A stretch of DNA of 50,936 nt from Bacteroidales bacterium (GCA_040880545.1 JBBDIE010000180.1:13962-64897); one strand, 5' to 3'; positions 12,039 through 21,917 are shown, numbered from the stretch's first letter. A program made the numbers and translations. The notes: a model not told the origin generated them from the sequence alone.

Positions 12039-12470
12039 TTAATTGCCCGAAAACGTTCGTATGTAATTTACAACAAACCAGACATTTTCATCTTCACTGA
12101 TGATCTTTTTAAATGTGGGCATGTCATCCCTTCCCTCACGTGTTTTATAGAATATCTCACCATCGGTCTGTAATTGAAATTCTTCAGTTGTAAAATCTCC
12201 CGGAAATGTTTTTAACTCTTTCGAATTGGTTCCATCTCCCTTGCCGGATTTGCCGTGGCATGATTTGCAGTTCTTGGCATACAGGGATTTCCCCATAAAT
12301 AGCCCATCACCATCCGTGGGATCAGTCGGATTTTTCAAATTCTTTGCAAATGAAGGAACGATCCATTCATCCTGCACCTTCTCATATTTAGCTGATGTAA
12401 AAACAAAGGCGCATACAAATAAGCCGAATACGGTAACTGTGGCAACATTGCTCAATTTTAATTTTTTCAT
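12039..12470 (-). CDS. Monoheme class I cytochrome c (ActE-like)
   Basis: N-terminal signal/TM; KNP...G..LY..NCKSCHGKSGKGDG; TDGEIFYK..GR..MP (axial Met); W.VVNYIR. Confidence 0.88.
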   Translation of the reverse strand: MKKLKLSNVATVTVFGLFVCAFVFTSAKYEKVQDEWIVPSFAKNLKNPTDPTDGDGLFMGKSLYAKNCKSCHGKSGKGDGTNSKELKTFPGDFTTEEFQLQTDGEIFYKTREGRDDMPTFKKIISEDENVWFVVNYIRTFSGN

Positions 12471-12513
12471 AAAATACGTTTTTTATTATTATACATATTT
12501 GACATGGCAAAAT

Positions 12514-13431
12514 CTATTTCTCCTTACCTAATTTCCTGATCTTATATATCTGAAAAATCAGGTACAGGATAATCCCCCATACTCCCAGGATAATAAGATT
12601 AGAAATAATGATTAAAAAGATAGGAGCATTCCCCCGGTTCCCCCACAGGGCTCCTTTTTCAAAGCTGCTTTGACTTTCCATCGGAACTCCCCATCGTATC
12701 AGTTTGCTTTTTGTGACGGTACCAAATGGATCTTCACCCTCCACCTTCACGAAGATCTCCACATCCCCTTCACTGTTCCCTGTGATATCAGTTGGAAATT
12801 CAATACTGATCTCTCCCTCTTCATTGGTATATGTATAATCACCCCCGATGGGCAACATACCCAGCATTCTCCGGATATAAAAGTGTATTTTTACACTTTC
12901 CACGGGAATGATTTGCCCTAAAGTATCCACCATACCGAAAGCAGCGAACACATATTTCACAGAATCCTTCTCAATACATTCCATCTCCAAAATGGATTCT
13001 CTCACTGATAATCTGGCTGTATCAGTACTGTAATTTTCCTGCTCATGTAACATGGCCATGAATTCAAATTGTACCCTCCCGGCCATGTCAGCAGTAAAAT
13101 TGTGCTCTCCAGAATTTAATTTCCCCTGACCATTTTCATCTGTAATAACAAATCCGATAAATCCCTCCTCTGAAATTTCATTCAGGTACAGGTCTACAAT
13201 TTCACCCTGGAGATAAACTATCCTGCCATGTTCCCTTGTACTTAGTGTGGCTACCAGAGTTCTGGAATTGTTATTATTTTTGTAATAAGCAAGGTATAAA
13301 TTAGCTGCCGTGTTATCCTTCGTTTCACCCATACCAAAGGTATTGATCGGCAGTAAAATGCAGGCCAATATCAGTACCTGCCAGACATTGGGTTTACGAA
13401 TAATTATTTTGCTATTTTTCATCATCTTCAA
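12514..13431 (-). CDS. Hypothetical exported protein with two Ig-like repeats and a C-terminal TM anchor
   Basis: Signal peptide; repeated IG...TDENG / IG...TNEEG strands; hydrophobic IFLIIISNLIILGVWGIILYLIF followed by a basic tail. Overlaps the nrfD stop; start may be 13425 or 13422. Confidence 0.75.
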   Translation of the reverse strand: MKMMKNSKIIIRKPNVWQVLILACILLPINTFGMGETKDNTAANLYLAYYKNNNNSRTLVATLSTREHGRIVYLQGEIVDLYLNEISEEGFIGFVITDENGQGKLNSGEHNFTADMAGRVQFEFMAMLHEQENYSTDTARLSVRESILEMECIEKDSVKYVFAAFGMVDTLGQIIPVESVKIHFYIRRMLGMLPIGGDYTYTNEEGEISIEFPTDITGNSEGDVEIFVKVEGEDPFGTVTKSKLIRWGVPMESQSSFEKGALWGNRGNAPIFLIIISNLIILGVWGIILYLIFQIYKIRKLGKEK

Positions 13432-14797
13432 TATTAAGATTAGAATAATTATTCGCTGTCTTCCCGAGGTTCAAACCCCTCTGTGTGGCCACATCCCAGA
13501 TGGAAATAACCGGGAAATACCTTGCGAAAACAGTGATAAGTAAAATAGCACCTGCTAATGAACCTATGGTAATTGTCCACTCCTCCCAGGTGGGAATATA
13601 CCGCATATAGGAGGCGGGAACATCCTGCATGGGTAGAAAAGGGTGTAGTAGTGTAGGCACAACGATCAGAAAGCGCTTAAACCATGCACTTACCAAAACT
13701 ATTACAGCAATGATAAATACAGGTGTCGGTCTGCGACCTTTTCTGAATAAGAGTATTATTATCGGAATAACCATGCCTCCGATCTGTACCAGCCAGAACA
13801 TCACCGCATATTTACCTTTAAATAAATCAGCCAGGTGATGTGCCTCGGCGCTGGCCATTTTATAGGCAGGAACCAGATATTCATTTACATTGAAGTAGAG
13901 ATAGATCAGCAGTAGCAATACCAGTAGCTTTCCCATCTTATCGAAATGCATTGCTAAAATATATTTTTTATATGCAGGAAAATACCTGTGAAATACATAC
14001 ATAGCAATAAGTACAGCCGAGGCCCCTGCCACAAATGCACCGGCTACAAAATATGGACCCAGGTTTGTACTGTCCCAGCCGGGTCTGAGTGTAGTAGCAA
14101 AGAGCCATGATGTTACCGTATGAATTGCCAGTGCAACGGGGATAATGAGTATAGCCAGTATTCTGATACTTTTTTCAATGACCTTAAATTGTTCTCTGCT
14201 CCCTCTCCAGCCCAGAGCAAGGAAACGGTACATACGCTGTTGCCAGACCGGAACATCCTTTAAATTATCCCGGCACATAGCCAGCCCGGGAAGCATGGGG
14301 AAATAGAGCAGAAGCAAACTTATGACCATGTATGTGGTTACCACGATAATATCCCAGACAATGGGAGACTGTATTCTGCCATGGAATAAGATATTTAACA
14401 GCCTGTCGGGTCTTCCCATATCAACAATAATTATAGATGCCGCGCAAAATATGGATACTGCGGCAATCAATTCAGCAATCCTGGTAATCGGGGCCCTCCA
14501 TTCGATTTTTAGCAGATACAGGATTGCGGTTATCAGTGATCCCACCAGGCTCACCGCTACAAAAAATACAAAATTTGAAATGTAAATTCCCCAGGAGACA
14601 AAATCCCGCATGGCAGTTATACCTAAACCTTTATTCAACTGTTTGATGTATACAAGCAACGCGGCTGTGCAGATCAGGGAAAGCAAGATGACGAAAATTC
14701 TTCCTTGGCTGCTGAATTTCCGTGGCAGCAGATCATCCTGGTATTCCCTGAGAAGTAACGCATGATTTTCCATCCTGGTATTATGGGATTTATTCAT
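13412..14797 (-). CDS. nrfD: NrfD/PsrC-family quinol-interacting membrane subunit (ActC-like, about 10 TM)
   Basis: WGIYISNFVFFVAVS, RAPITRIAE, DMGRPDR, SPIVWD, AIHTVTSWLFA...PGW...PYFVAGA, WFKRFLIVVP, YIPTWEE. Confidence 0.9.
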   Translation of the reverse strand: MNKSHNTRMENHALLLREYQDDLLPRKFSSQGRIFVILLSLICTAALLVYIKQLNKGLGITAMRDFVSWGIYISNFVFFVAVSLVGSLITAILYLLKIEWRAPITRIAELIAAVSIFCAASIIIVDMGRPDRLLNILFHGRIQSPIVWDIIVVTTYMVISLLLLYFPMLPGLAMCRDNLKDVPVWQQRMYRFLALGWRGSREQFKVIEKSIRILAILIIPVALAIHTVTSWLFATTLRPGWDSTNLGPYFVAGAFVAGASAVLIAMYVFHRYFPAYKKYILAMHFDKMGKLLVLLLLIYLYFNVNEYLVPAYKMASAEAHHLADLFKGKYAVMFWLVQIGGMVIPIIILLFRKGRRPTPVFIIAVIVLVSAWFKRFLIVVPTLLHPFLPMQDVPASYMRYIPTWEEWTITIGSLAGAILLITVFARYFPVISIWDVATQRGLNLGKTANNYSNLNIEDDEK

Positions 14798-14812
14798 TAC
14801 AAATTCAGCTAT

Positions 14813-15766
14813 TTAATGTTTTTTATCATCTTCAAAAGGAAAAAGCCGGTTTGCCGGTGGCAGATAATATACACTGGGTTCGGTACCCAATCCTGCCAGA
14901 AACTGGTATCCTGCTTTTGACTCAATTAACTCACTGAACCGAATTGTTTCACTGGGATTCGATACCGTATCTTCATTCATATCTCCCATGTAAAACACTC
15001 CGTTCGGACATGATGTCACACATTTTGGAAATTCTCCGCGCTCCAGGTGACTCGTGCAAAAATCACATTTTTCAACAGTACCCATTTTCCTGGGTACACT
15101 GGCCGAACAATTCTCTTCACTTTCATGTATCTCTCCTTTAGTAACCGGTTCGGACCAGTTAAATGTCCTGGCAGAATAGGGACACCCGGCCATACAGAAC
15201 CTGCATCCTATACATCTTTCATTATCTATCAAAACGATTCCGTCTTCACGGATAAATGTTGCATCCACCGGACAGACTTTCACACAGGGCGGGTTGTCGC
15301 AGTGATAACAGGGTGATGGCATCCAGTAAGGGGCAGTGGATTCACCTTCCTGCATTTTAAATACTTTGAGCCAGTTTACATCATCAGGTAAAAAGTGCAT
15401 GCTTCTGCATCCCTCCTGGCACTTCCGCTCATTTTTACATTTAGAGAGGTCTATTACCATCACAAATTTTCTTCCCGGCACTCCTTTGCGCATAGATCGG
15501 TTGGTATGGGCATGCCCCATCTTCAGTCCGGCAGCCTGTACTTCATCCAGTTCAATTACATCTCCCCCGGGCGTTAACGCCCTTATTTTATTGACTATTT
15601 CATCGTCATGATCCCGTTTTTTCTGTACTCCGTTGTTAATGATCATTGCACTCCCAATGGCTGCTCCTCCTCCAATGGCTGCACTTCCTCCAAGAAGGAG
15701 ACCCTGTTTCAGAAATCTCCTCCTGTCCGGTTTTTCGACCATGTTCTCTTTTTTCTTCATAATCAT
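14813..15766 (-). CDS. Tat-exported 4Fe-4S dicluster protein (NrfC/DsrO/ActB2-like)
   Basis: DRRRFLK twin-arginine motif; Cys groups CKNERKCQEGC, CYHCDNPPCVKVCP, CIGCRFCMAGCPY, CDFC...CVTSCP; C-terminal GTEPSVYY. Confidence 0.92.
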   Translation of the reverse strand: MIMKKKENMVEKPDRRRFLKQGLLLGGSAAIGGGAAIGSAMIINNGVQKKRDHDDEIVNKIRALTPGGDVIELDEVQAAGLKMGHAHTNRSMRKGVPGRKFVMVIDLSKCKNERKCQEGCRSMHFLPDDVNWLKVFKMQEGESTAPYWMPSPCYHCDNPPCVKVCPVDATFIREDGIVLIDNERCIGCRFCMAGCPYSARTFNWSEPVTKGEIHESEENCSASVPRKMGTVEKCDFCTSHLERGEFPKCVTSCPNGVFYMGDMNEDTVSNPSETIRFSELIESKAGYQFLAGLGTEPSVYYLPPANRLFPFEDDKKH

Positions 15767-15771
15767 GTTGG

Positions 15772-16659
15772 TTAAAATTTCCAGAGCCTGTTGATATTAA
15801 ATCCCAACAGGATATCCATTTTGGTAAAGTCGTTCATGTTCAGTGTCATATTACTTTGCGGACTTATCTTACTATAGGATCCCAGGAATATCTGAAAAGA
15901 ATGTCCCAGCGTACTGATCTCAATTCCGAGATTCGCATTTGGCTTTATGATCTCCGGGGTTGTCAATGGCATATCGTACGCAAATATTACCCCCAGTTGC
16001 GGTGTGATTTTATATTTACCATTCAGTGAAACTCCCAGGTTATTGTGCTGCAATCCTGGAAAGGCAATGGTGTCGACCAGGTTGAAATGTGTAAACTGAA
16101 TGCTGGCTTGTACCGACAATCGCATGTTTATTTTTCTGGCAACAATCAGCTGGTGGAAGTACGATAGCCGGTGGGCAAAGGCATATTCCAAACCAAAATT
16201 TTCATTCTCCCTGACACTGGTCTCAACATTCCCATAGTAGGTTACCGCCACTGGAATCCGGTTGGAACGGGTTTGCCTCAAAATTCTCAATTTCCAGTTC
16301 ACATCCTGAAGCTTGTTGTTTTTGGTTGACCCCAGTCCAACCTGCAGGTAGTCTGTAAGACTGTAACTTAACCCGATTCTTATATTTGAAGGAGCGTAAA
16401 GTCCGGCAAGATCGAATGTGTTACTGTTTATTGTCCCGAAACGGTGCTGGATCATAAACTCCAGGGTATTGGCCGATGGCACCACGACAGTCTGATTATC
16501 TATCAGTATTCCAGCATCAAATGGCGGATTTATCGGACGATTATCCTTTTCTTGCTTCTCATCTGTTAATATATCCTGGGAATTTACATTTTCGGAAAAG
16601 ATCACCAGAACCATCATAAAAAATAAAAGCAGGTAGTTTTTGTTCTTCATAGCTTTCAA
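15772..16659 (-). CDS. DUF5777-family outer-membrane beta-barrel protein
   Basis: Signal peptide; LEFMIQHRFG, NIRIGLSY, RILRQT, RLSYFHQLIVARK, EISTLGHSFQIF, GFNINRLWKF (terminal Phe). Confidence 0.82.
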   Translation of the reverse strand: MKAMKNKNYLLLFFMMVLVIFSENVNSQDILTDEKQEKDNRPINPPFDAGILIDNQTVVVPSANTLEFMIQHRFGTINSNTFDLAGLYAPSNIRIGLSYSLTDYLQVGLGSTKNNKLQDVNWKLRILRQTRSNRIPVAVTYYGNVETSVRENENFGLEYAFAHRLSYFHQLIVARKINMRLSVQASIQFTHFNLVDTIAFPGLQHNNLGVSLNGKYKITPQLGVIFAYDMPLTTPEIIKPNANLGIEISTLGHSFQIFLGSYSKISPQSNMTLNMNDFTKMDILLGFNINRLWKF

Positions 16660-16680
16660 AGATTAGTCATTACATACCCT

Positions 16681-17070
16681 TTAATTATCCATGGCCCCCT
16701 GTCTGATCCATTTTAAAATTAACTCAGTTTTGTTTACAGGAAGGTTTCCGTCAGGAGGCATAGGATTATTTATCGAGGTCAACCGTGTGTATATGATACT
16801 TGACTCAGCATCAGAAACATCCACCATCCCATATACCATTAAATTCATGTAAGCATCAGATTCCGTAAGGTAAGGAGTATAGCCCCCCTGGGCATGACAC
16901 CCGCTGGTGTTACAACTTTCATTGAAAATAGGCTGAATATCCATTGAAAATTTTACTGTATCGGGAATGGGACTGTCATCATAAACAAGGTAGGCTGACT
17001 CGCAAGAACTGATGGCCAGGATTGCCAGACAAAAGGGGACTAACAGGATATATGTGAAATTTTTTATCAT
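16681..17070 (-). CDS. Cytochrome c lipoprotein (planctomycete cytochrome C-like domain, CX4CH)
   Basis: Lipobox ISSC; VKFSMDIQPIFNESCNTSGCH; MPP; LILKWIRQGA. Confidence 0.8.
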   Translation of the reverse strand: MIKNFTYILLVPFCLAILAISSCESAYLVYDDSPIPDTVKFSMDIQPIFNESCNTSGCHAQGGYTPYLTESDAYMNLMVYGMVDVSDAESSIIYTRLTSINNPMPPDGNLPVNKTELILKWIRQGAMDN

Positions 17071-18452
17071 TCTTCCATAAATATTAAGGTCTCATACAAT
17101 GTGCCAATATGATTCTTCCCATCACTGTCCATGATTGCAAGGCCAAACACGTAGGAATTGGATACAGAAAGATCAAATTTCACGTCATTTTCTTTCCCAG
17201 TATCCAATTTACGCTTAATGATTACCCTGTACTTATCGTGGTCTGTATCCAGCCTCGCCAGTAAGAGATTCGATGTTGTATGCAGATCCGTATATGTTGA
17301 ATCTGGTTTGCTTAAATAATACCCCGGCACACCGGCAAACCCCCTGATCCGGGCCAACAGATCGTCCCTTTGGTCCACACTGATTTTATTAAAATAGGTC
17401 TGCCCCGTATGGCTTACGTTACTGGCAGAATTTATCAGGTTCTCCCTGGAAAACCGGTTCATCCTCACATTTGTAAAAGCCGGGCCGGCGTCAATCTCAC
17501 CGTTCCCATCACCCAGCGTTCCGTGACATTTGTAACATCCCTTCTGGTCATCTAAATAGATTGCCTCACCCAGTACCGGATCTCCGGTAAATGGAGTCTT
17601 TTCTGTAAGGAAGTATCCCGGATCCAGTATGGCCATACTTTGATCCATCCTGGTAATCTCCTGGGTGATTCCGTCCCATTCAAATGCGGGCCCCGACCTG
17701 TTATTTCCACCGTGAACAACATTTCGTTCAAATGAAATCTGTCCCTGATCAAAAACCAACCCACTGTCCTGGTCGGCAAACATATCAAATGCAAACCCAA
17801 AAGGCTCCGACAATGCAGTACTCCAGTTCCATATATCAACGCTTCCTGTTTCAGGGGCCATGGTCCCATTATGACAAACAGTGGCACAACCCGCATTTGC
17901 AAATGTCCCCGCTTGCCCCGATATTGACTCAATCTCAAACACCAGGCTGATTTGATCATCATTGCGTTGTGAGGTCCAGCCAACCGTTGAATCTGGTTTC
18001 AACGGGTCAGGATCACCACCCCATAACCAGGAGGCACGTGATGCATCCAGATCTGAATCGTTCCATTCCAATAGAAGGTAGAGGTACATACTATCATACG
18101 CCGCCTTCATAACAACCTCAGGATTGATGCCGTCGTTAAAACTCTCCAAACCATTATAGGTACCTGTCATATTTAATAATCCATCCGCTTCATAAACTCC
18201 GTGAGTATTGAGATTCGTTAATGATACTTTCAAGTAGTCTGCCTCATTCCAGTATTTTGCATCTATACTGAATACAGGAGATGAAACCAGGGATGCCTCC
18301 AGATTTTCAGTTTCAACAGGCACCCTTGGTGTGGGTATGGGATAAGGAACATAATAATCATCCGTACAGGAAGAAATCACCAGCTGAGTAGCACTGACAA
18401 CCACTAGTAGTGCATTAAAATTTAACGTATTTATTTTTGTCTTGAAGTTCAT
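17067..18452 (-). CDS. Lipoprotein with an ethylbenzene-dehydrogenase gamma-like (DOMON) domain and an inserted cytochrome c domain
   Basis: Lipobox ISSC; MKAAYDSMYLYLLLEWND, DIWNW, KRKLDTG..DVKF, FGLAIMD; heme motifs CATVCH (17871-17888) and CYKCH (17523-17537). The ORF track starts at TTG 18461. Confidence 0.75.
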   Translation of the reverse strand: MNFKTKINTLNFNALLVVVSATQLVISSCTDDYYVPYPIPTPRVPVETENLEASLVSSPVFSIDAKYWNEADYLKVSLTNLNTHGVYEADGLLNMTGTYNGLESFNDGINPEVVMKAAYDSMYLYLLLEWNDSDLDASRASWLWGGDPDPLKPDSTVGWTSQRNDDQISLVFEIESISGQAGTFANAGCATVCHNGTMAPETGSVDIWNWSTALSEPFGFAFDMFADQDSGLVFDQGQISFERNVVHGGNNRSGPAFEWDGITQEITRMDQSMAILDPGYFLTEKTPFTGDPVLGEAIYLDDQKGCYKCHGTLGDGNGEIDAGPAFTNVRMNRFSRENLINSASNVSHTGQTYFNKISVDQRDDLLARIRGFAGVPGYYLSKPDSTYTDLHTTSNLLLARLDTDHDKYRVIIKRKLDTGKENDVKFDLSVSNSYVFGLAIMDSDGKNHIGTLYETLIFMEE

Positions 18453-18611
18453 CTTGAGCAATCATTTTTTTGAATTCAGACATCATCAGATTACCAGTTG
18501 AGAAATACAGCTTGACCGTTGAAATGATCTTATGCGGAACATATACCCGGTTAAAATCAGTGCATTTGAAACCTGCAATTTTCAGGATTTACAAACAATC
18601 ACATGTTCAGA

Positions 18612-19577
18612 TCAGTTTTTTCGGTAATTGGCATTTATGCTAACATTGATTTTATCAGAAATAGAAGTAGATGTCACCCCGTAATCTGAAATTGCATTGA
18701 ACTCAAATTCACCTTTGAAACTACCCCTGAAGTTTGATCCATCCCCAGCTGCTGAATAGTCTGCCTGGCCCAAATAATTGAAATAGAGATCCACCTCCTT
18801 GGTTATTCCCTTAAATATCAGATCCCCTGATGCTTTATATCCATCACCGAAACTGGTAACAGTGGTGCTTTTATAATAGGCTGTATCGGTATTTAGATCC
18901 GAAACATAATATGAACCGTCGGTCAGTGTATCCGTTTCAACTCCCAGGTATCCATTAAGACAATTTCCCAGGTTATCGCGCCCAGGTTCACCTGTATTAG
19001 CACTGCTTAGTTGAACCCATGCTCTTATTTTTATATTGGCCGGAACTGCTTCATCAAAATCTATATCAATCCCAAATGAGTTGAATTTGCCCGTTAACAA
19101 TGCATTATCGCCCATATAAGCGGTAGACCAGTTTACATTTGAATGTGCCTTGTCAAATCTCCAGCTTCCATCTTCCGAATTTACTTTATCGTTTCCCCCT
19201 GGTTCCGTTACAAGAGTAATATCCATTGTAATATCCTCCAAAACCTCCACCAATACCGGGGAAGCAGTTCTGAAATTGTATCCTGCTGATTTCAGGATGT
19301 TCACATTCTCTGTATTAAAATGTGAGGAGAGATAATAGGAACCCTCATTCAGCCCGGCAATGGAATAAAATCCCTCTGCATCTGAAACAACGCTATTCAA
19401 TATTGTACCAGCTGTTGAATCGGTACTGACTGATACAACTGCACCCCTGGCAGGTATCGCATCTCCATAGGTAACATTACCCGCGACCGTATAGGTATTA
19501 TCTTTTCCACACTGATACAACATCAAACCGGATAATAAAAACAGGAATAAGAATGATCTGTTAATTTTTGTTTTCAT
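18612..19577 (-). CDS. YceI-family lipoprotein with an N-terminal carboxypeptidase-regulatory-like domain
   Basis: Probable lipoprotein signal ending LYQC; VSDAEGFYSIAGLNEGSYYL; YceI motifs FDKAHSNVNW, GKFNSF, SANTGEPGRD, GDLIFKGITKEV. Start set at MKTKINR. Confidence 0.82.
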   Translation of the reverse strand: MKTKINRSFLFLFLLSGLMLYQCGKDNTYTVAGNVTYGDAIPARGAVVSVSTDSTAGTILNSVVSDAEGFYSIAGLNEGSYYLSSHFNTENVNILKSAGYNFRTASPVLVEVLEDITMDITLVTEPGGNDKVNSEDGSWRFDKAHSNVNWSTAYMGDNALLTGKFNSFGIDIDFDEAVPANIKIRAWVQLSSANTGEPGRDNLGNCLNGYLGVETDTLTDGSYYVSDLNTDTAYYKSTTVTSFGDGYKASGDLIFKGITKEVDLYFNYLGQADYSAAGDGSNFRGSFKGEFEFNAISDYGVTSTSISDKINVSINANYRKN

Positions 19578-19735
19578 AGCAATCGTTTTTGGTGGTTTAT
19601 ATCTGGTTAGTATTTTTTCACTCACTCCAATTTGCCGTATCGGTAAGATTCAGGGTTACATTATGCCGTGTAAAACAACAGAAGGTCAATCCTGAAATGA
19701 CTTGAAGTAAATTAACGGTGAATTCTTAAGATAGT

Positions 19736-19791
19736 AAATACCGGAAATTACGTAATACGCGTATTCTTACAGAAATACCAGAATATACGTA
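19736..19791. promoter_or_regulatory. Direct-repeat and palindrome cluster, probable LuxR/NarL-type operator of the redox operon
   Basis: AAATACCGGAAATTACGTA (19736-19754) and AAATACCAGAATATACGTA (19773-19791) are 16/19 identical. Palindromes ATTACGTAAT and AATACGCGTATT overlap the first copy and the spacer. Confidence 0.55.
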
Positions 19792-19941
19792 GGGTCTCAT
19801 GATGCATCCCTTTAAAGAATATGTCAATAAAGTAGCGTGGCTGGATCAGCATCTTTGAGATCATAACTTGTCCTGTATTAAACGGCAGCCTGCAGCGTGC
19901 TTAAACGAGGGTACGCAGGTATCGGACATTATGGACAGATA

Positions 19942-21324
19942 CTATATAATTCCGTTCTGTACAGCATAATGAACAAGATCAATAACGCTCTTACTGTGAA
20001 TTTTCTGCATTAGGTTACGTCGGTGGGTTTCTACTGTTCTTACACTGATAAACAACTTGGTGGCTATGTCCTGATTGCTGTTCCCTTCAGCAATTAATTT
20101 CATGATCTCCAATTCACGGGATGTTAACGGCACTTCTCCGATTGCCCTGATGTTTTTTTTATTTCCCTGATCAGTGTTCCCTGTGTACAATATATCTTGT
20201 TTCTGATCCTTCGTGACATTGCATGCTAAACAAATCATACCGCAGTAATTGTCTTTGGAATCATACATCACTGAATTTGAAAACAGTACAGGAATTGAAC
20301 GGCCTTCCCTGGAATAATAAGTGTTCAGAATGTTACTTTTGTTTTTTAATTCATCATTTATTTTTACAACCAGATCCAATGGTTGTCCTATTAGCTCCTC
20401 TTCTTCATAACCCAAAAGTTCCAGACATGATTGATTCACCACCCGGATCTTACCCTGGACACCTGTGATGATCAGAGAATCGACCATTCTTTTCAAAATG
20501 TTGTGGAAATAATCTTTAGAAACGGTTATTTTTTCCAACGAGCCGATCATATTATTAAAAGAGGTTACAAATTCTTCTAATTCATCCCCTGTTTTTGATT
20601 TCATCGGCGCTTTGGTGGAAAAATCACCCATGGAGATTTTAGTGGTTGCCGTTAACAGATGCTTGATCGGAACTGTGATTTCCCTGACATAAAAGTACCC
20701 TCCGATGAGCAAACTCAGTACAGTAATTAAAGCAACAAAAATGATTATTCTGTGGGCCCTTGTATTGGTTGACTGATTGAATTCAATATTTCCCTCTATC
20801 TCAAGTAGTGAAATTACCATGGATTCATCAATCATTTCAATGGTCCTGTCTGCAATCAGATCCATTCTTTCCATCATCACCGCAGCTTCGAAATTATGTA
20901 TGGGCACTTCAATGGCAAAGATCTTTTCCGCAAGACTCAGGATCTCTTTAAAATTCTTTTCAAAATCATTGATCGCTGCAATATGCCTTTGATCTTTTAT
21001 AACCTGGTAACATATTCGCAGTTGATTACTTACTTCTTCCCTTAATCTATGGTAATTTTCAACTTCAATTTTATTTCCATGGATCAGGTAATCGTTCACC
21101 GGCATTACTAATTGAGAAAGCTTTATTTTCAGGCTATGGATATTATAGTGTACAACCGATTCCTTGAATATTTCGTTTGAACCTCTTTCAAGATTATTAA
21201 TACTGGTCAATGAAACTATTGATATTATGAACACCAGGATCTGTACCGCGACAATTCCCACCAACAACTTTCCAAAGATGGACAACCTGATGGCAGGAAA
21301 CTTTATTTTTTTCTTCTCACCCAT
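19942..21324 (-). CDS. Membrane-bound one-component regulator: TM - periplasmic helical sensor - TM - HAMP - PAS - LuxR HTH
   Basis: Two TM segments; HAMP ITVPIKHL...GDF...DELEEFVTSFNNM; PAS MVDSLIITGVQGKIRVVNQSCLELLGY..EELIG; HTH LTSRELEIMKLIAEGNSNQDIATKLFISVRTVETHRRNLMQKI. Confidence 0.88.
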   Translation of the reverse strand: MGEKKKIKFPAIRLSIFGKLLVGIVAVQILVFIISIVSLTSINNLERGSNEIFKESVVHYNIHSLKIKLSQLVMPVNDYLIHGNKIEVENYHRLREEVSNQLRICYQVIKDQRHIAAINDFEKNFKEILSLAEKIFAIEVPIHNFEAAVMMERMDLIADRTIEMIDESMVISLLEIEGNIEFNQSTNTRAHRIIIFVALITVLSLLIGGYFYVREITVPIKHLLTATTKISMGDFSTKAPMKSKTGDELEEFVTSFNNMIGSLEKITVSKDYFHNILKRMVDSLIITGVQGKIRVVNQSCLELLGYEEEELIGQPLDLVVKINDELKNKSNILNTYYSREGRSIPVLFSNSVMYDSKDNYCGMICLACNVTKDQKQDILYTGNTDQGNKKNIRAIGEVPLTSRELEIMKLIAEGNSNQDIATKLFISVRTVETHRRNLMQKIHSKSVIDLVHYAVQNGII

Positions 21325-21499: not shown

Positions 21500-21917
21500 G
21501 AAGGATTTGGACCCCTGGAAAGTCTGTGCATAACAGGTAATTTATACTCCGTCTGAATAAATAATCCGGAATCTGGAAGTTCATCATCGATCTGTTGGAA
21601 ACTGGTTACTATGATTACTGATACCAGCCACTGGACTCCCATCGCTTAACACCACTCAGAGACAGGTTAAACACCTGTATACTGAATTCCCTGGTAATAT
21701 TTCCTGTACTGATAAAATTGAAATCATCAGCTGTCAGACTCAACCTGGTAGTGGCAATCTGCCCATCTCCGTTGTCCAATACAATCACTCTTTTTATCAA
21801 TCCATTGTCCAGCGTTAAAACATTGTTCTCCAATGAACTGTATGGTCCGACCTGTCCCTGTAATATGGCAAACCCGGTGATTACCAACAAAGTGATTGTA
21901 GCCAGGTAACTTCTCAT
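21500..21917 (-). pseudogene. Truncated secreted-protein gene, resembling the N-terminus of Bacteroidota alpha-galactosidase-like glycoside hydrolases
   Basis: Good signal peptide, then LTLDNGLIKRVI...NFIS...EFSI...SG..W, stopping after 100 aa (21615). A shifted frame continues INYLLCTDFPGV. Family recalled by eye; the left end is approximate. Confidence 0.45.

Follow-up and report, generated by a model that had tools for sequence, protein, structure and literature searches.

How might a bacterium pass electrons between its respiratory quinones and its outer membrane from a gene cluster that encodes no multihaem protein? The question is raised by nine genes at positions 12,039 to 21,324 of a 50,936-nt stretch of DNA from a Bacteroidales bacterium (GCA_040880545.1, JBBDIE010000180.1:13962-64897), hereafter the window, which an original prediction had read as an undescribed trans-envelope electron conduit with its own regulator. 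Our analysis shows that these genes form a real, conserved and undescribed envelope redox cluster of the Bacteroidota, in which an inner-membrane quinol module is joined to an outer-membrane β-barrel of the DUF5777 family and a haem lipoprotein, and whose probable function is electron transfer between the respiratory quinones and the outer layer of the cell. The products, from the highest to the lowest coordinate, are the following.

19942-21324, minus strand: membrane one-component regulator with a 4HB_MCP-like sensor, HAMP (6.3e-07), PAS_9 (9.7e-09) and a LuxR/GerE helix-turn-helix (4.3e-20), by Pfam.
18612-19625, minus strand: YceI-family lipocalin (Pfam YceI, 64 bits, 2.3e-17) with an N-terminal CarboxypepD_reg-like domain and a lipobox-like LYQC.
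17067-18461, minus strand: EB_dh (DOMON-like haem) lipoprotein (Pfam EB_dh, 50.5 bits, 3.7e-13) with one CX3CH and one CXXCH.
16681-17070, minus strand: CX4CH monohaem lipoprotein cytochrome of 129 aa (the CX4 protein) with a lipobox and CNTSGCH, in no Pfam or NCBIfam family.
15772-16659, minus strand: DUF5777 (PF19089) outer-membrane β-barrel (Pfam, 230.6 bits, 2.2e-68).
14813-15766, minus strand: four-cluster Fer4 iron-sulfur (FeS) protein of 317 aa, exported by twin-arginine translocation (Tat), of the NrfC/PsrB/DsrO/ActB-C-terminal type, with RRRFLK and four Cys cluster motifs.
13412-14797, minus strand: NrfD-family integral membrane quinol-interacting subunit, ActC-like (Pfam NrfD, 130.9 bits, 1e-37).
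12514-13431, minus strand: U305, a protein of 305 aa without Pfam or NCBIfam match, with a signal sequence, two immunoglobulin (Ig)-like domains and a C-terminal transmembrane helix.
12039-12470, minus strand: monohaem class I cytochrome c (Pfam Cytochrome_CBB3, 5.1e-10; Cytochrom_C, 3.1e-09) with an N-terminal signal or anchor.

The nine open reading frames (ORFs) were all found where they had been predicted, and their co-orientation and tight spacing were borne out by the ORF coordinates together with the Pfam and NCBIfam searches. The EB_dh and CX4 genes overlap by 4 nt (17067-17070), the intergenic gaps measure 21, 5, 15 and 43 nt, that of 5 nt separating the barrel gene from the FeS gene, and the NrfD and U305 ORFs overlap by 20 nt, provided that a TTG start is used; the YceI gene lies 150 nt upstream of the EB_dh gene. 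A Pfam domain search of 12039-21324 returned no molybdopterin, hydrogenase, NrfA or multihaem protein, in agreement with the predicted lack of a catalytic subunit, and in the labelled related loci the FeS and NrfD genes are likewise accompanied by neither NrfA nor a molybdopterin protein. The assignment of the products to different layers of the envelope also held, given the barrel model, the transmembrane helix of the U305 model, and the Tat motif and lipoboxes in the sequence. Promoter and terminator scans gave counts close to those of shuffled sequences (35 against 32.4, and 8 against 7.5, respectively), the sigma-70 consensus being unsuited to Bacteroidota.

Whether such an arrangement is a unit at all depends on what other genomes contain. 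Relatives were collected by a one-genome-per-species scan with an alignment of four paralogues, and the best 80 loci of 516 relatives, all labelled Bacteroidota except for one Thalassomonas-labelled metagenome-assembled genome (MAG), had their ORFs labelled by phmmer with the proteins of the window and of the paralogous clusters; this set is biased to the window's barrel subfamily. A phylum sample was therefore read beside it, consisting of 300 other Bacteroidota genomes, from which 40 loci, one per genome, were taken down the hit list with the neighbours unseen. Among the 66 barrels of the first set with at least 4.5 kb of downstream sequence, FeS, NrfD and U305 genes follow 19, a 7-haem cytochrome with cytochrome b561 follows 20, both modules follow 6 and neither follows 33. 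U305 is present in 9 of the 300 sampled genomes, in every case at most 8 kb from a DUF5777 match on the same contig, and all nine loci hold the CX4-barrel pair together with FeS-NrfD-U305, eight of them on the same strand and one (L137) divergently; EB_dh accompanies four of the nine and YceI three. The near-complete window set recurs in L009 (a Sphingobacteriaceae MAG), L010 and L136, and EB_dh is also present, as in the window, in L009, L010, L130-L132 and L136. The 19 of the 80 loci that carry FeS and NrfD include nine with EB_dh, eight with the 7-haem/b561 pair and four with YceI, EB_dh and the 7-haem/b561 pair being mutually exclusive among them. Thus, the two halves do co-occur, the point on which the original prediction was most exposed (19/66 barrels; 9/9 U305 genomes among 300), and for that reason the cluster is a conserved unit, found in about 3% of the sampled genomes and built on a commoner outer-membrane core. 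In L131 (G219:C1:1158860-1174614), the set of FeS, NrfD, U305 and cytochrome c genes is tandemly duplicated after a single EB_dh-CX4-barrel unit.

These data bear directly on the simplest objection, namely that a YceI/cytochrome/barrel operon and an unrelated orphan operon of the NrfCD type merely happen to adjoin. The 150-nt gap before the EB_dh gene, the lack of conservation of the regulator and the fact that most DUF5777 clusters are without FeS-NrfD all speak for such an accident, but the two halves are only 5 nt apart at the barrel-FeS boundary, the barrel pair stands beside FeS-NrfD-U305 in 9/9 U305 genomes (8 on the same strand), and 19 related loci have the same order. Because the gene order recurs in other genomes, for instance in loci L009, L010 and L130-L136, the arrangement is far beyond chance, and we consider accidental adjacency very improbable.

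The outer-membrane core itself is much more widespread than the complete cluster. Membership of the window barrel in DUF5777 is clear (230.6 bits against a cut-off of 23.1, with profile positions 1-247 of 247 covered), and the family occurs in 126 of the 300 Bacteroidota genomes sampled. The 80 loci contain 85 barrels with a length of 200 aa or more, and 79 of these are preceded, at a distance of up to 1.5 kb, by an ORF on the same strand that carries a haem motif, the background being 5/302 among ORFs more than 7 kb away from a barrel; of the six exceptions, five lie at contig ends, with less than 1 kb of upstream sequence, and in the sixth case a single ORF had been called in two pieces, the barrel in question being the second of them. 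In the phylum sample, a same-strand haem ORF is found within 1.5 kb upstream of the barrel in 31/40 loci and within 2.5 kb in 34/40, the remainder comprising two loci with an opposite-strand haem ORF, three with a Rieske protein or cupredoxin instead and one with none, and 39/40 have a YceI gene at most 2.5 kb from the barrel. The CX4 lipoprotein is, in sum, a near-obligate partner of the barrel. The genome of the window (98% complete, 203 contigs) has four DUF5777 genes, each beside redox genes: besides the one described here, contig C76 (L005:6600-10000) encodes a CX4-like lipoprotein, a barrel, a 7-haem cytochrome, cytochrome b561 and a monohaem cytochrome c, without YceI; contig C73 (L006:1938-6973) an extracytoplasmic function (ECF) sigma factor, a 446-aa protein, YceI, a barrel, a Rieske protein and a cupredoxin with a type IX secretion system (T9SS) sorting tail; and contig C79 (L007:274-4679) a small cytochrome c, a barrel, YceI and a Reg_prop/Y_Y_Y/SpoIIE regulator. 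Elsewhere in the phylum, cytochrome-YceI-barrel clusters repeatedly include a small tRNA_anti-like (OB-fold) protein that the window cluster lacks (L067:7385-7810, 11 further loci and many of L089-L105). Cultured carriers include Flavobacteriia and Rufibacter for one type of cluster (type C) and Mucilaginibacter-like strains for another (type A).

What kind of barrel is this, and how is the cytochrome held to it? The AlphaFold2 (AF2) model of the barrel has 12 strands and a predicted local distance difference test (pLDDT) value of 90.9, and its nearest solved folds (Foldseek, TM-score of about 0.5) are the 12-14-strand channels NanC, the COG4313 channel, OmpG, FapF and KdgM. No haem motif is present in any of 90 barrels, and no longer, fused DUF5777 homologue that would link the barrel to a cytochrome or YceI was found at E ≤ 1e-5, an absence that is weak evidence. 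Ten residues are invariant in 82 barrels, two histidines included (H72, H253, N193, Q129, P136 and F47 are among the ten); a bis-His haem site formed by H72 and H253 was considered but not adopted, because their strand positions would put them at different heights and on the hydrophobic face. In another genome, two DUF5777 matches share one 607-aa frame (G001:C7:132016-133659), which may be a tandem fused double barrel. As to the partner, an alignment of 45 CX4-family sequences shows the lipobox Cys, C53, C58 and H59 to be invariant. Among 53 members, the haem motif is CXXCH in 25, CX4CH in 25, one of each in a single protein and two CX4CH in two, so that 50/53 have one motif and 3/53 have two. 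Homologues bear either CXXCH or CX4CH at this site, so that the window protein's CX4CH is, as judged from the alignment, a variant haem site at a conserved position.

Modelling of the barrel with the CX4 protein, haem included, passed its controls, as the original prediction had proposed should be examined, for the N-terminal peptide only: the complex scored 0.62 (runs of 0.62, 0.61 and 0.66) against 0.27 for the best control, with a partner pLDDT of at least 84 and at least 58% of contacts agreeing between runs. The mark used for this score is attained by 58/80 solved complexes and by 2/110 mismatched pairs, a calibration that is rough here, where our own alignments and a ligand were used. 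In the model, CX4 residues 23-31 contact barrel residues 153-167 and 191-205, regions that would be extracellular loops 3 and 4, because of the strand order and an assumed periplasmic C-terminus; a periplasmic C-terminus is the general rule for such barrels.

The side of the membrane on which the lipoproteins lie is a separate matter. In Bacteroidota, according to the part of PMC5080379 available, lipoproteins are exported to the surface by a signal after the lipid-bearing Cys, C-X-K-(D/E)2 or a polar residue followed by acidic residues, which we counted as two adjacent D/E at +2 to +6. The mature N-terminus of the EB_dh protein, C-T-D-D, fits the signal; that of the CX4 protein, C-E-S-A-Y, does not. 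The evidence on the predicted surface exposure of the lipoproteins is contradictory: the docking model would point outward, but the signal is missing from the CX4 family (0/79). It is possible that the CX4 lipoprotein is threaded through, or assembled with, its own barrel, which would reconcile model and signal.

The same observations could be accommodated if no electron crossed the outer membrane at all, the barrel admitting a redox-active solute such as Fe2+, which the tethered cytochrome would oxidise or reduce in the periplasm, with electrons passing through cytochrome c to oxidases, or to and from the quinone pool through the inner-membrane module. Small solute channels (NanC, KdgM, OmpG and the COG4313 channel) are the closest folds of the barrel, the 0/79 count would leave the haem periplasmic, and the genome has haem-copper oxidases; moreover, the paralogous C73 cluster pairs a barrel with a Rieske protein and a cupredoxin, a combination that resembles the iron-oxidation chains of acidophiles. 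A precedent would be Cyc2, in which a porin and a monohaem cytochrome are fused and for which oxidation of dissolved Fe2+ has been predicted (excerpts of PMC8406198). Such a channel, however, leaves no role for YceI or the EB_dh lipoprotein, the C73 cupredoxin has a T9SS sorting tail that would send it to the cell surface, and the complex model puts the N-terminus of the lipoprotein on loops that would be extracellular. We judge this arrangement unlikely.

Searched against the PDB, the window NrfD matched solely the four ActC chains of alternative complex III (ACIII), at 1.5e-48 to 5.3e-46 over residues 35-438, and the FeS protein matched ArrB (1.8e-28), PsrB (5e-28) and ActB (8.1e-20), the last only in its C-terminal region. 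ACIII is a quinol:cytochrome c oxidoreductase. Because NrfD matches only ActC among solved structures, the inner half of the cluster would, by analogy, be a reduced ACIII-like module of that activity. The resemblance to ACIII (ActABCDEF; PDB 6f0k, 6btm, 6lod and 8k9e) extends to the full length of the NrfD-ActC alignment, to the kinship of the FeS protein with the C-terminal part of ActB, to the monohaem cytochrome c encoded alongside and to the lack of a catalytic molybdopterin subunit. Unlike ACIII, the window has no pentahaem ActA, no second NrfD-like subunit ActF and no molybdopterin-like half of ActB, U305 is without a recognised ACIII counterpart, and the module is linked to an outer-membrane barrel and not to an oxidase. 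A DsrMKJOP identity was rejected, as the FeS protein (184.4 bits against the NCBIfam DsrO cut-off of 200) and NrfD (134 bits against 350 for DsrP) fall below the equivalog cut-offs and the cluster has no DsrMKJ-like genes; so was an NrfABCD or PsrABC-type complex iron-sulfur molybdoenzyme, for want of an NrfA or molybdopterin gene in 12039-21324 or in the labelled related loci. U305, whose gene always follows that of NrfD in related loci, is a specific companion of this FeS-NrfD pair. Its AF2 model (pLDDT 82) consists of a signal sequence, two Ig-like β-sandwiches and a C-terminal transmembrane helix; the sequence alignment contains no cofactor motif or conserved Cys/His, and a fold search gave generic Ig and fibronectin type III matches (TM-scores of 0.2-0.3) and no functional lead. 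The monohaem cytochrome c, which is 41% identical to that of the paralogous cluster on contig C76 and whose homologues flank the FeS-NrfD module in most related loci, is likely the electron acceptor or donor of this module. An ACIII-like locus separate from the cluster is present in the genome too, as are NrfHA-like cytochromes and two haem-copper oxidases; the organism therefore respires oxygen. The direction of electron flow cannot be read from the sequence, as had been foreseen.

The remaining components are the YceI lipocalin and the EB_dh lipoprotein. Family members of YceI bind ubiquinone-8 (PMC8981238 and PMC9113575, in the portions available), and the window protein is likely a binder of polyisoprenoids or quinones. 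The EB_dh protein, the only copy of its family in the genome, carries the CX3CH in its EB_dh domain and, in addition, an inserted class I cytochrome c segment with CYKCH, residues 286-376 matching monohaem c proteins weakly. Its CX3CH is kept in 6/6 and 8/9 homologues, the one exception being a truncated ORF.

The constancy of YceI raises the possibility of an envelope antioxidant, in which quinol electrons would quench lipid peroxyl radicals or other oxidants at the outer membrane in the manner of BcnA-LcoA, with YceI carrying menaquinol. YceI is, indeed, the most constant partner of the barrel phylum-wide (39/40 loci), and where a YceI-type lipocalin or the cytochrome b561 linked to it is mutated, lipid peroxidation builds up, lipocalin-bound quinol having been proposed as the quencher (PMC9113575, in the sections available). 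DUF5777 is present in 45/49 genomes of one family and in 0/63 of another, which a contrast of aerobes with gut anaerobes would fit, the identities of the two families being guessed, and the clusters have stress-type regulators of their own, such as the ECF sigma factor and a one-component sensor. Nevertheless, cytochrome b561 is absent from the window cluster, BcnA-LcoA needs neither an outer-membrane barrel nor a c-type cytochrome, and relatives of an anaerobe type look respiratory, with their 7-haem and stalked 6-haem cytochromes and Crp/Fnr regulators. An antioxidant role is thus unlikely as well, if the foremost of the alternatives weighed here.

These respiratory-looking relatives deserve description. 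In 16/80 loci, all of them with the 7-haem/b561 pair, a lipoprotein has a lipid Cys followed by a collagen-like Gly-X-Y stretch and then by six haem motifs, and such proteins (e.g., L011:16544-17584, L017:13370-14569 and L048:8314-9372) have a Pfam match to the MtrC/F domain; they may be stalked surface cytochromes, and literature searches found no description of collagen-like multihaem lipoproteins. A divergent Crp/Fnr-type regulator occurs in 14/80 loci. Cytochrome b561 and multihaem proteins are typical parts of extracellular electron transfer systems, and, taken together, these features look like those of extracellular respiration as far as sequence can indicate. The stalked 6-haem lipoprotein and the Crp/Fnr regulator are absent from the window, where the EB_dh-cytochrome c lipoprotein holds the corresponding place. 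In 7-9 of the 80 loci (L017:3499-8519 and seven other Bacteroidales), the barrel cluster is immediately preceded by genes for an electron-transfer flavoprotein, an acyl-CoA dehydrogenase and a CCG/Fer4 oxidoreductase, which could reflect either common descent among closely related genomes or a source of electrons for the quinone pool.

One claim that did not survive is that of a dedicated regulator. The regulator gene is co-oriented with the YceI gene and lies 316 nt upstream of it, and homologues were found in only 1/80 of the loci of barrel relatives and in 0/49 of the phylum-sample and U305 loci; it is outside the conserved unit. Beyond it, the flanks are unrelated to the cluster (an M20 peptidase on the plus strand, GldB and NadE), and a 100-aa ORF without family match (21615-21917, minus strand) lies between the regulator and gldB.

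How does the cluster compare with known systems? It shares with the porin-cytochrome conduits (MtrCAB, PioAB/MtoAB and Geobacter Pcc) and with Cyc2 a barrel gene obligately paired with a c-type cytochrome gene, and a link to quinol-oxidising inner-membrane modules and periplasmic cytochromes, some relatives even having multihaem lipoproteins with an MtrC/F-like domain. It differs from them in that the DUF5777 barrel has 12 strands, against 26 in Mtr and 16 in Cyc2 (excerpts of PMC8406198), and in that its partner is a separate one-haem lipoprotein modelled as N-terminally tethered and not inserted. A conduit of the Mtr/Pcc type would have a barrel of about 20 or more strands (26 in Mtr), a multihaem periplasmic partner and adjacent co-conserved genes, and of these the cluster has the adjacent co-conserved genes (79/85 and 34/40) and neither the large barrel nor the multihaem partner; with a 12-strand barrel and a one-haem partner, the analogy drawn in the original prediction fails structurally. 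A Cyc2-type protein was rejected too, because 0/90 barrels have a haem motif, the strands number 12 and not 16, and no fused homologue came to light, which is itself weak evidence, Cyc2 being compared here by its description in the part of PMC8406198 available.

With BcnA-LcoA (of the E. coli yceI-yceJ type; PMC9113575, as far as its accessible sections go) the window shares a YceI lipocalin tied to a quinone-linked membrane redox protein, a lipocalin-bound periplasmic quinol having been proposed there. It differs in having NrfD/FeS in place of b561, in addition to a barrel, c-type haem lipoproteins and a DOMON-like haem protein, and the adjoining YceI and b561 genes of that system are found at neither place, the window YceI being without b561 and the C76 b561 without YceI. 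A published functional analogue is the pair Cbp2D and Cbp2E of Cellvibrio japonicus, secreted YceI-plus-cytochrome proteins that can reduce lytic polysaccharide monooxygenases (LPMOs) and for which electron delivery to extracellular enzymes is proposed (PMC8981238 and PMC10916295, both in part). They are, unlike the window's separate lipoproteins and barrel, which have no carbohydrate-binding module, single multi-domain secreted proteins with such modules. A Cbp2D-like supply of electrons to LPMOs was rejected for this organism, its 98%-complete genome having no LPMO_10 match. Searches of the literature found no description of a YceI/cytochrome/barrel/NrfD cluster in Bacteroidota and no paper mentioning DUF5777 by name, which is consistent with the cluster having been called undescribed. 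The nearest precedent is the preprint of Peterson et al. (10.1101/2020.04.01.018762), which, in the part available, reports unverified porin-cytochrome operons in Bacteroidetes bins and whose Figure S10, of barrel neighbourhoods in these bins, may already depict the multihaem variant.

The mechanism that we favour, with a confidence only a little above even, is that electrons pass between the menaquinone pool and outer-membrane haems by way of the ACIII-like module, cytochrome c, the barrel-tethered cytochrome, the EB_dh lipoprotein and YceI. The ActC-like NrfD subunit would exchange electrons with menaquinol, and NrfD, the FeS protein, U305 and the monohaem cytochrome c would together form a quinol:cytochrome c oxidoreductase, or work in reverse. 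In the outer module, the one-haem lipoprotein would be tethered to the 12-strand barrel by the peptide that follows its lipid anchor, the YceI lipocalin would be the likely menaquinone carrier, and the DOMON/EB_dh-cytochrome c lipoprotein would be an addition found in the window cluster. We infer the flow of electrons along this route, their arrival at the cell surface, their direction and their final acceptor or donor.

Several observations weigh against this mechanism. A barrel of 12 strands has no room for a cytochrome inside it, one haem per side leaves a gap across the outer membrane that is too wide for direct tunnelling, and no further cofactor or mobile carrier bridging that membrane was found. 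The complex model confidently places only CX4 residues 23-31, the peptide just after the lipid Cys, and the export signal occurs in 0/79 lipobox-bearing members of the CX4 family and in only 4/14 of the EB_dh family. Moreover, 33/66 evaluable barrels have no inner-membrane module, nor does any of the 40 phylum-sample loci have one, the genome's own ACIII and two haem-copper oxidases could draw electrons from the monohaem cytochrome, and DUF5777 is common in families whose distribution suggests aerobes, so that a housekeeping role in the envelope fits equally well.

Because one haem per side is too far for tunnelling, some mobile carrier, or a solute passing the barrel, would have to bridge the distance, menaquinone bound to YceI being the obvious candidate for the carrier. 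This leads to a broader proposal, namely an envelope electron transfer that dispenses with a multihaem wire: YceI would ferry menaquinol to the barrel, the barrel would present the carrier to the tethered one-haem lipoprotein, and quinol:cytochrome c modules, either ACIII-like or of b561 with a 7-haem cytochrome, would boost or reverse the flow. We hold this to be unlikely; if it were true, the quinone relay would define a class of redox station at the outer membrane that is both new and spread across the phylum.

DUF5777 proteins, present in 126/300 genomes, almost invariably have haem, copper or iron-sulfur proteins as their genetic neighbours. Of the cluster types, that in the window tells the most, since the connection to the quinone pool is visible in it, through a minimal ACIII-like complex and two unstudied proteins, the barrel and the Ig-like subunit of that complex. 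Bacteroidota are dominant in soils, sediments and waters. Should electrons travel through the module towards or away from the outer membrane, an unrecognised redox interface would exist in a large part of the phylum, one whose possible partners include metals, humics, oxidants and extracellular enzymes, and which escapes screens by Mtr, Pcc or Cyc2 homology or by haem counts.

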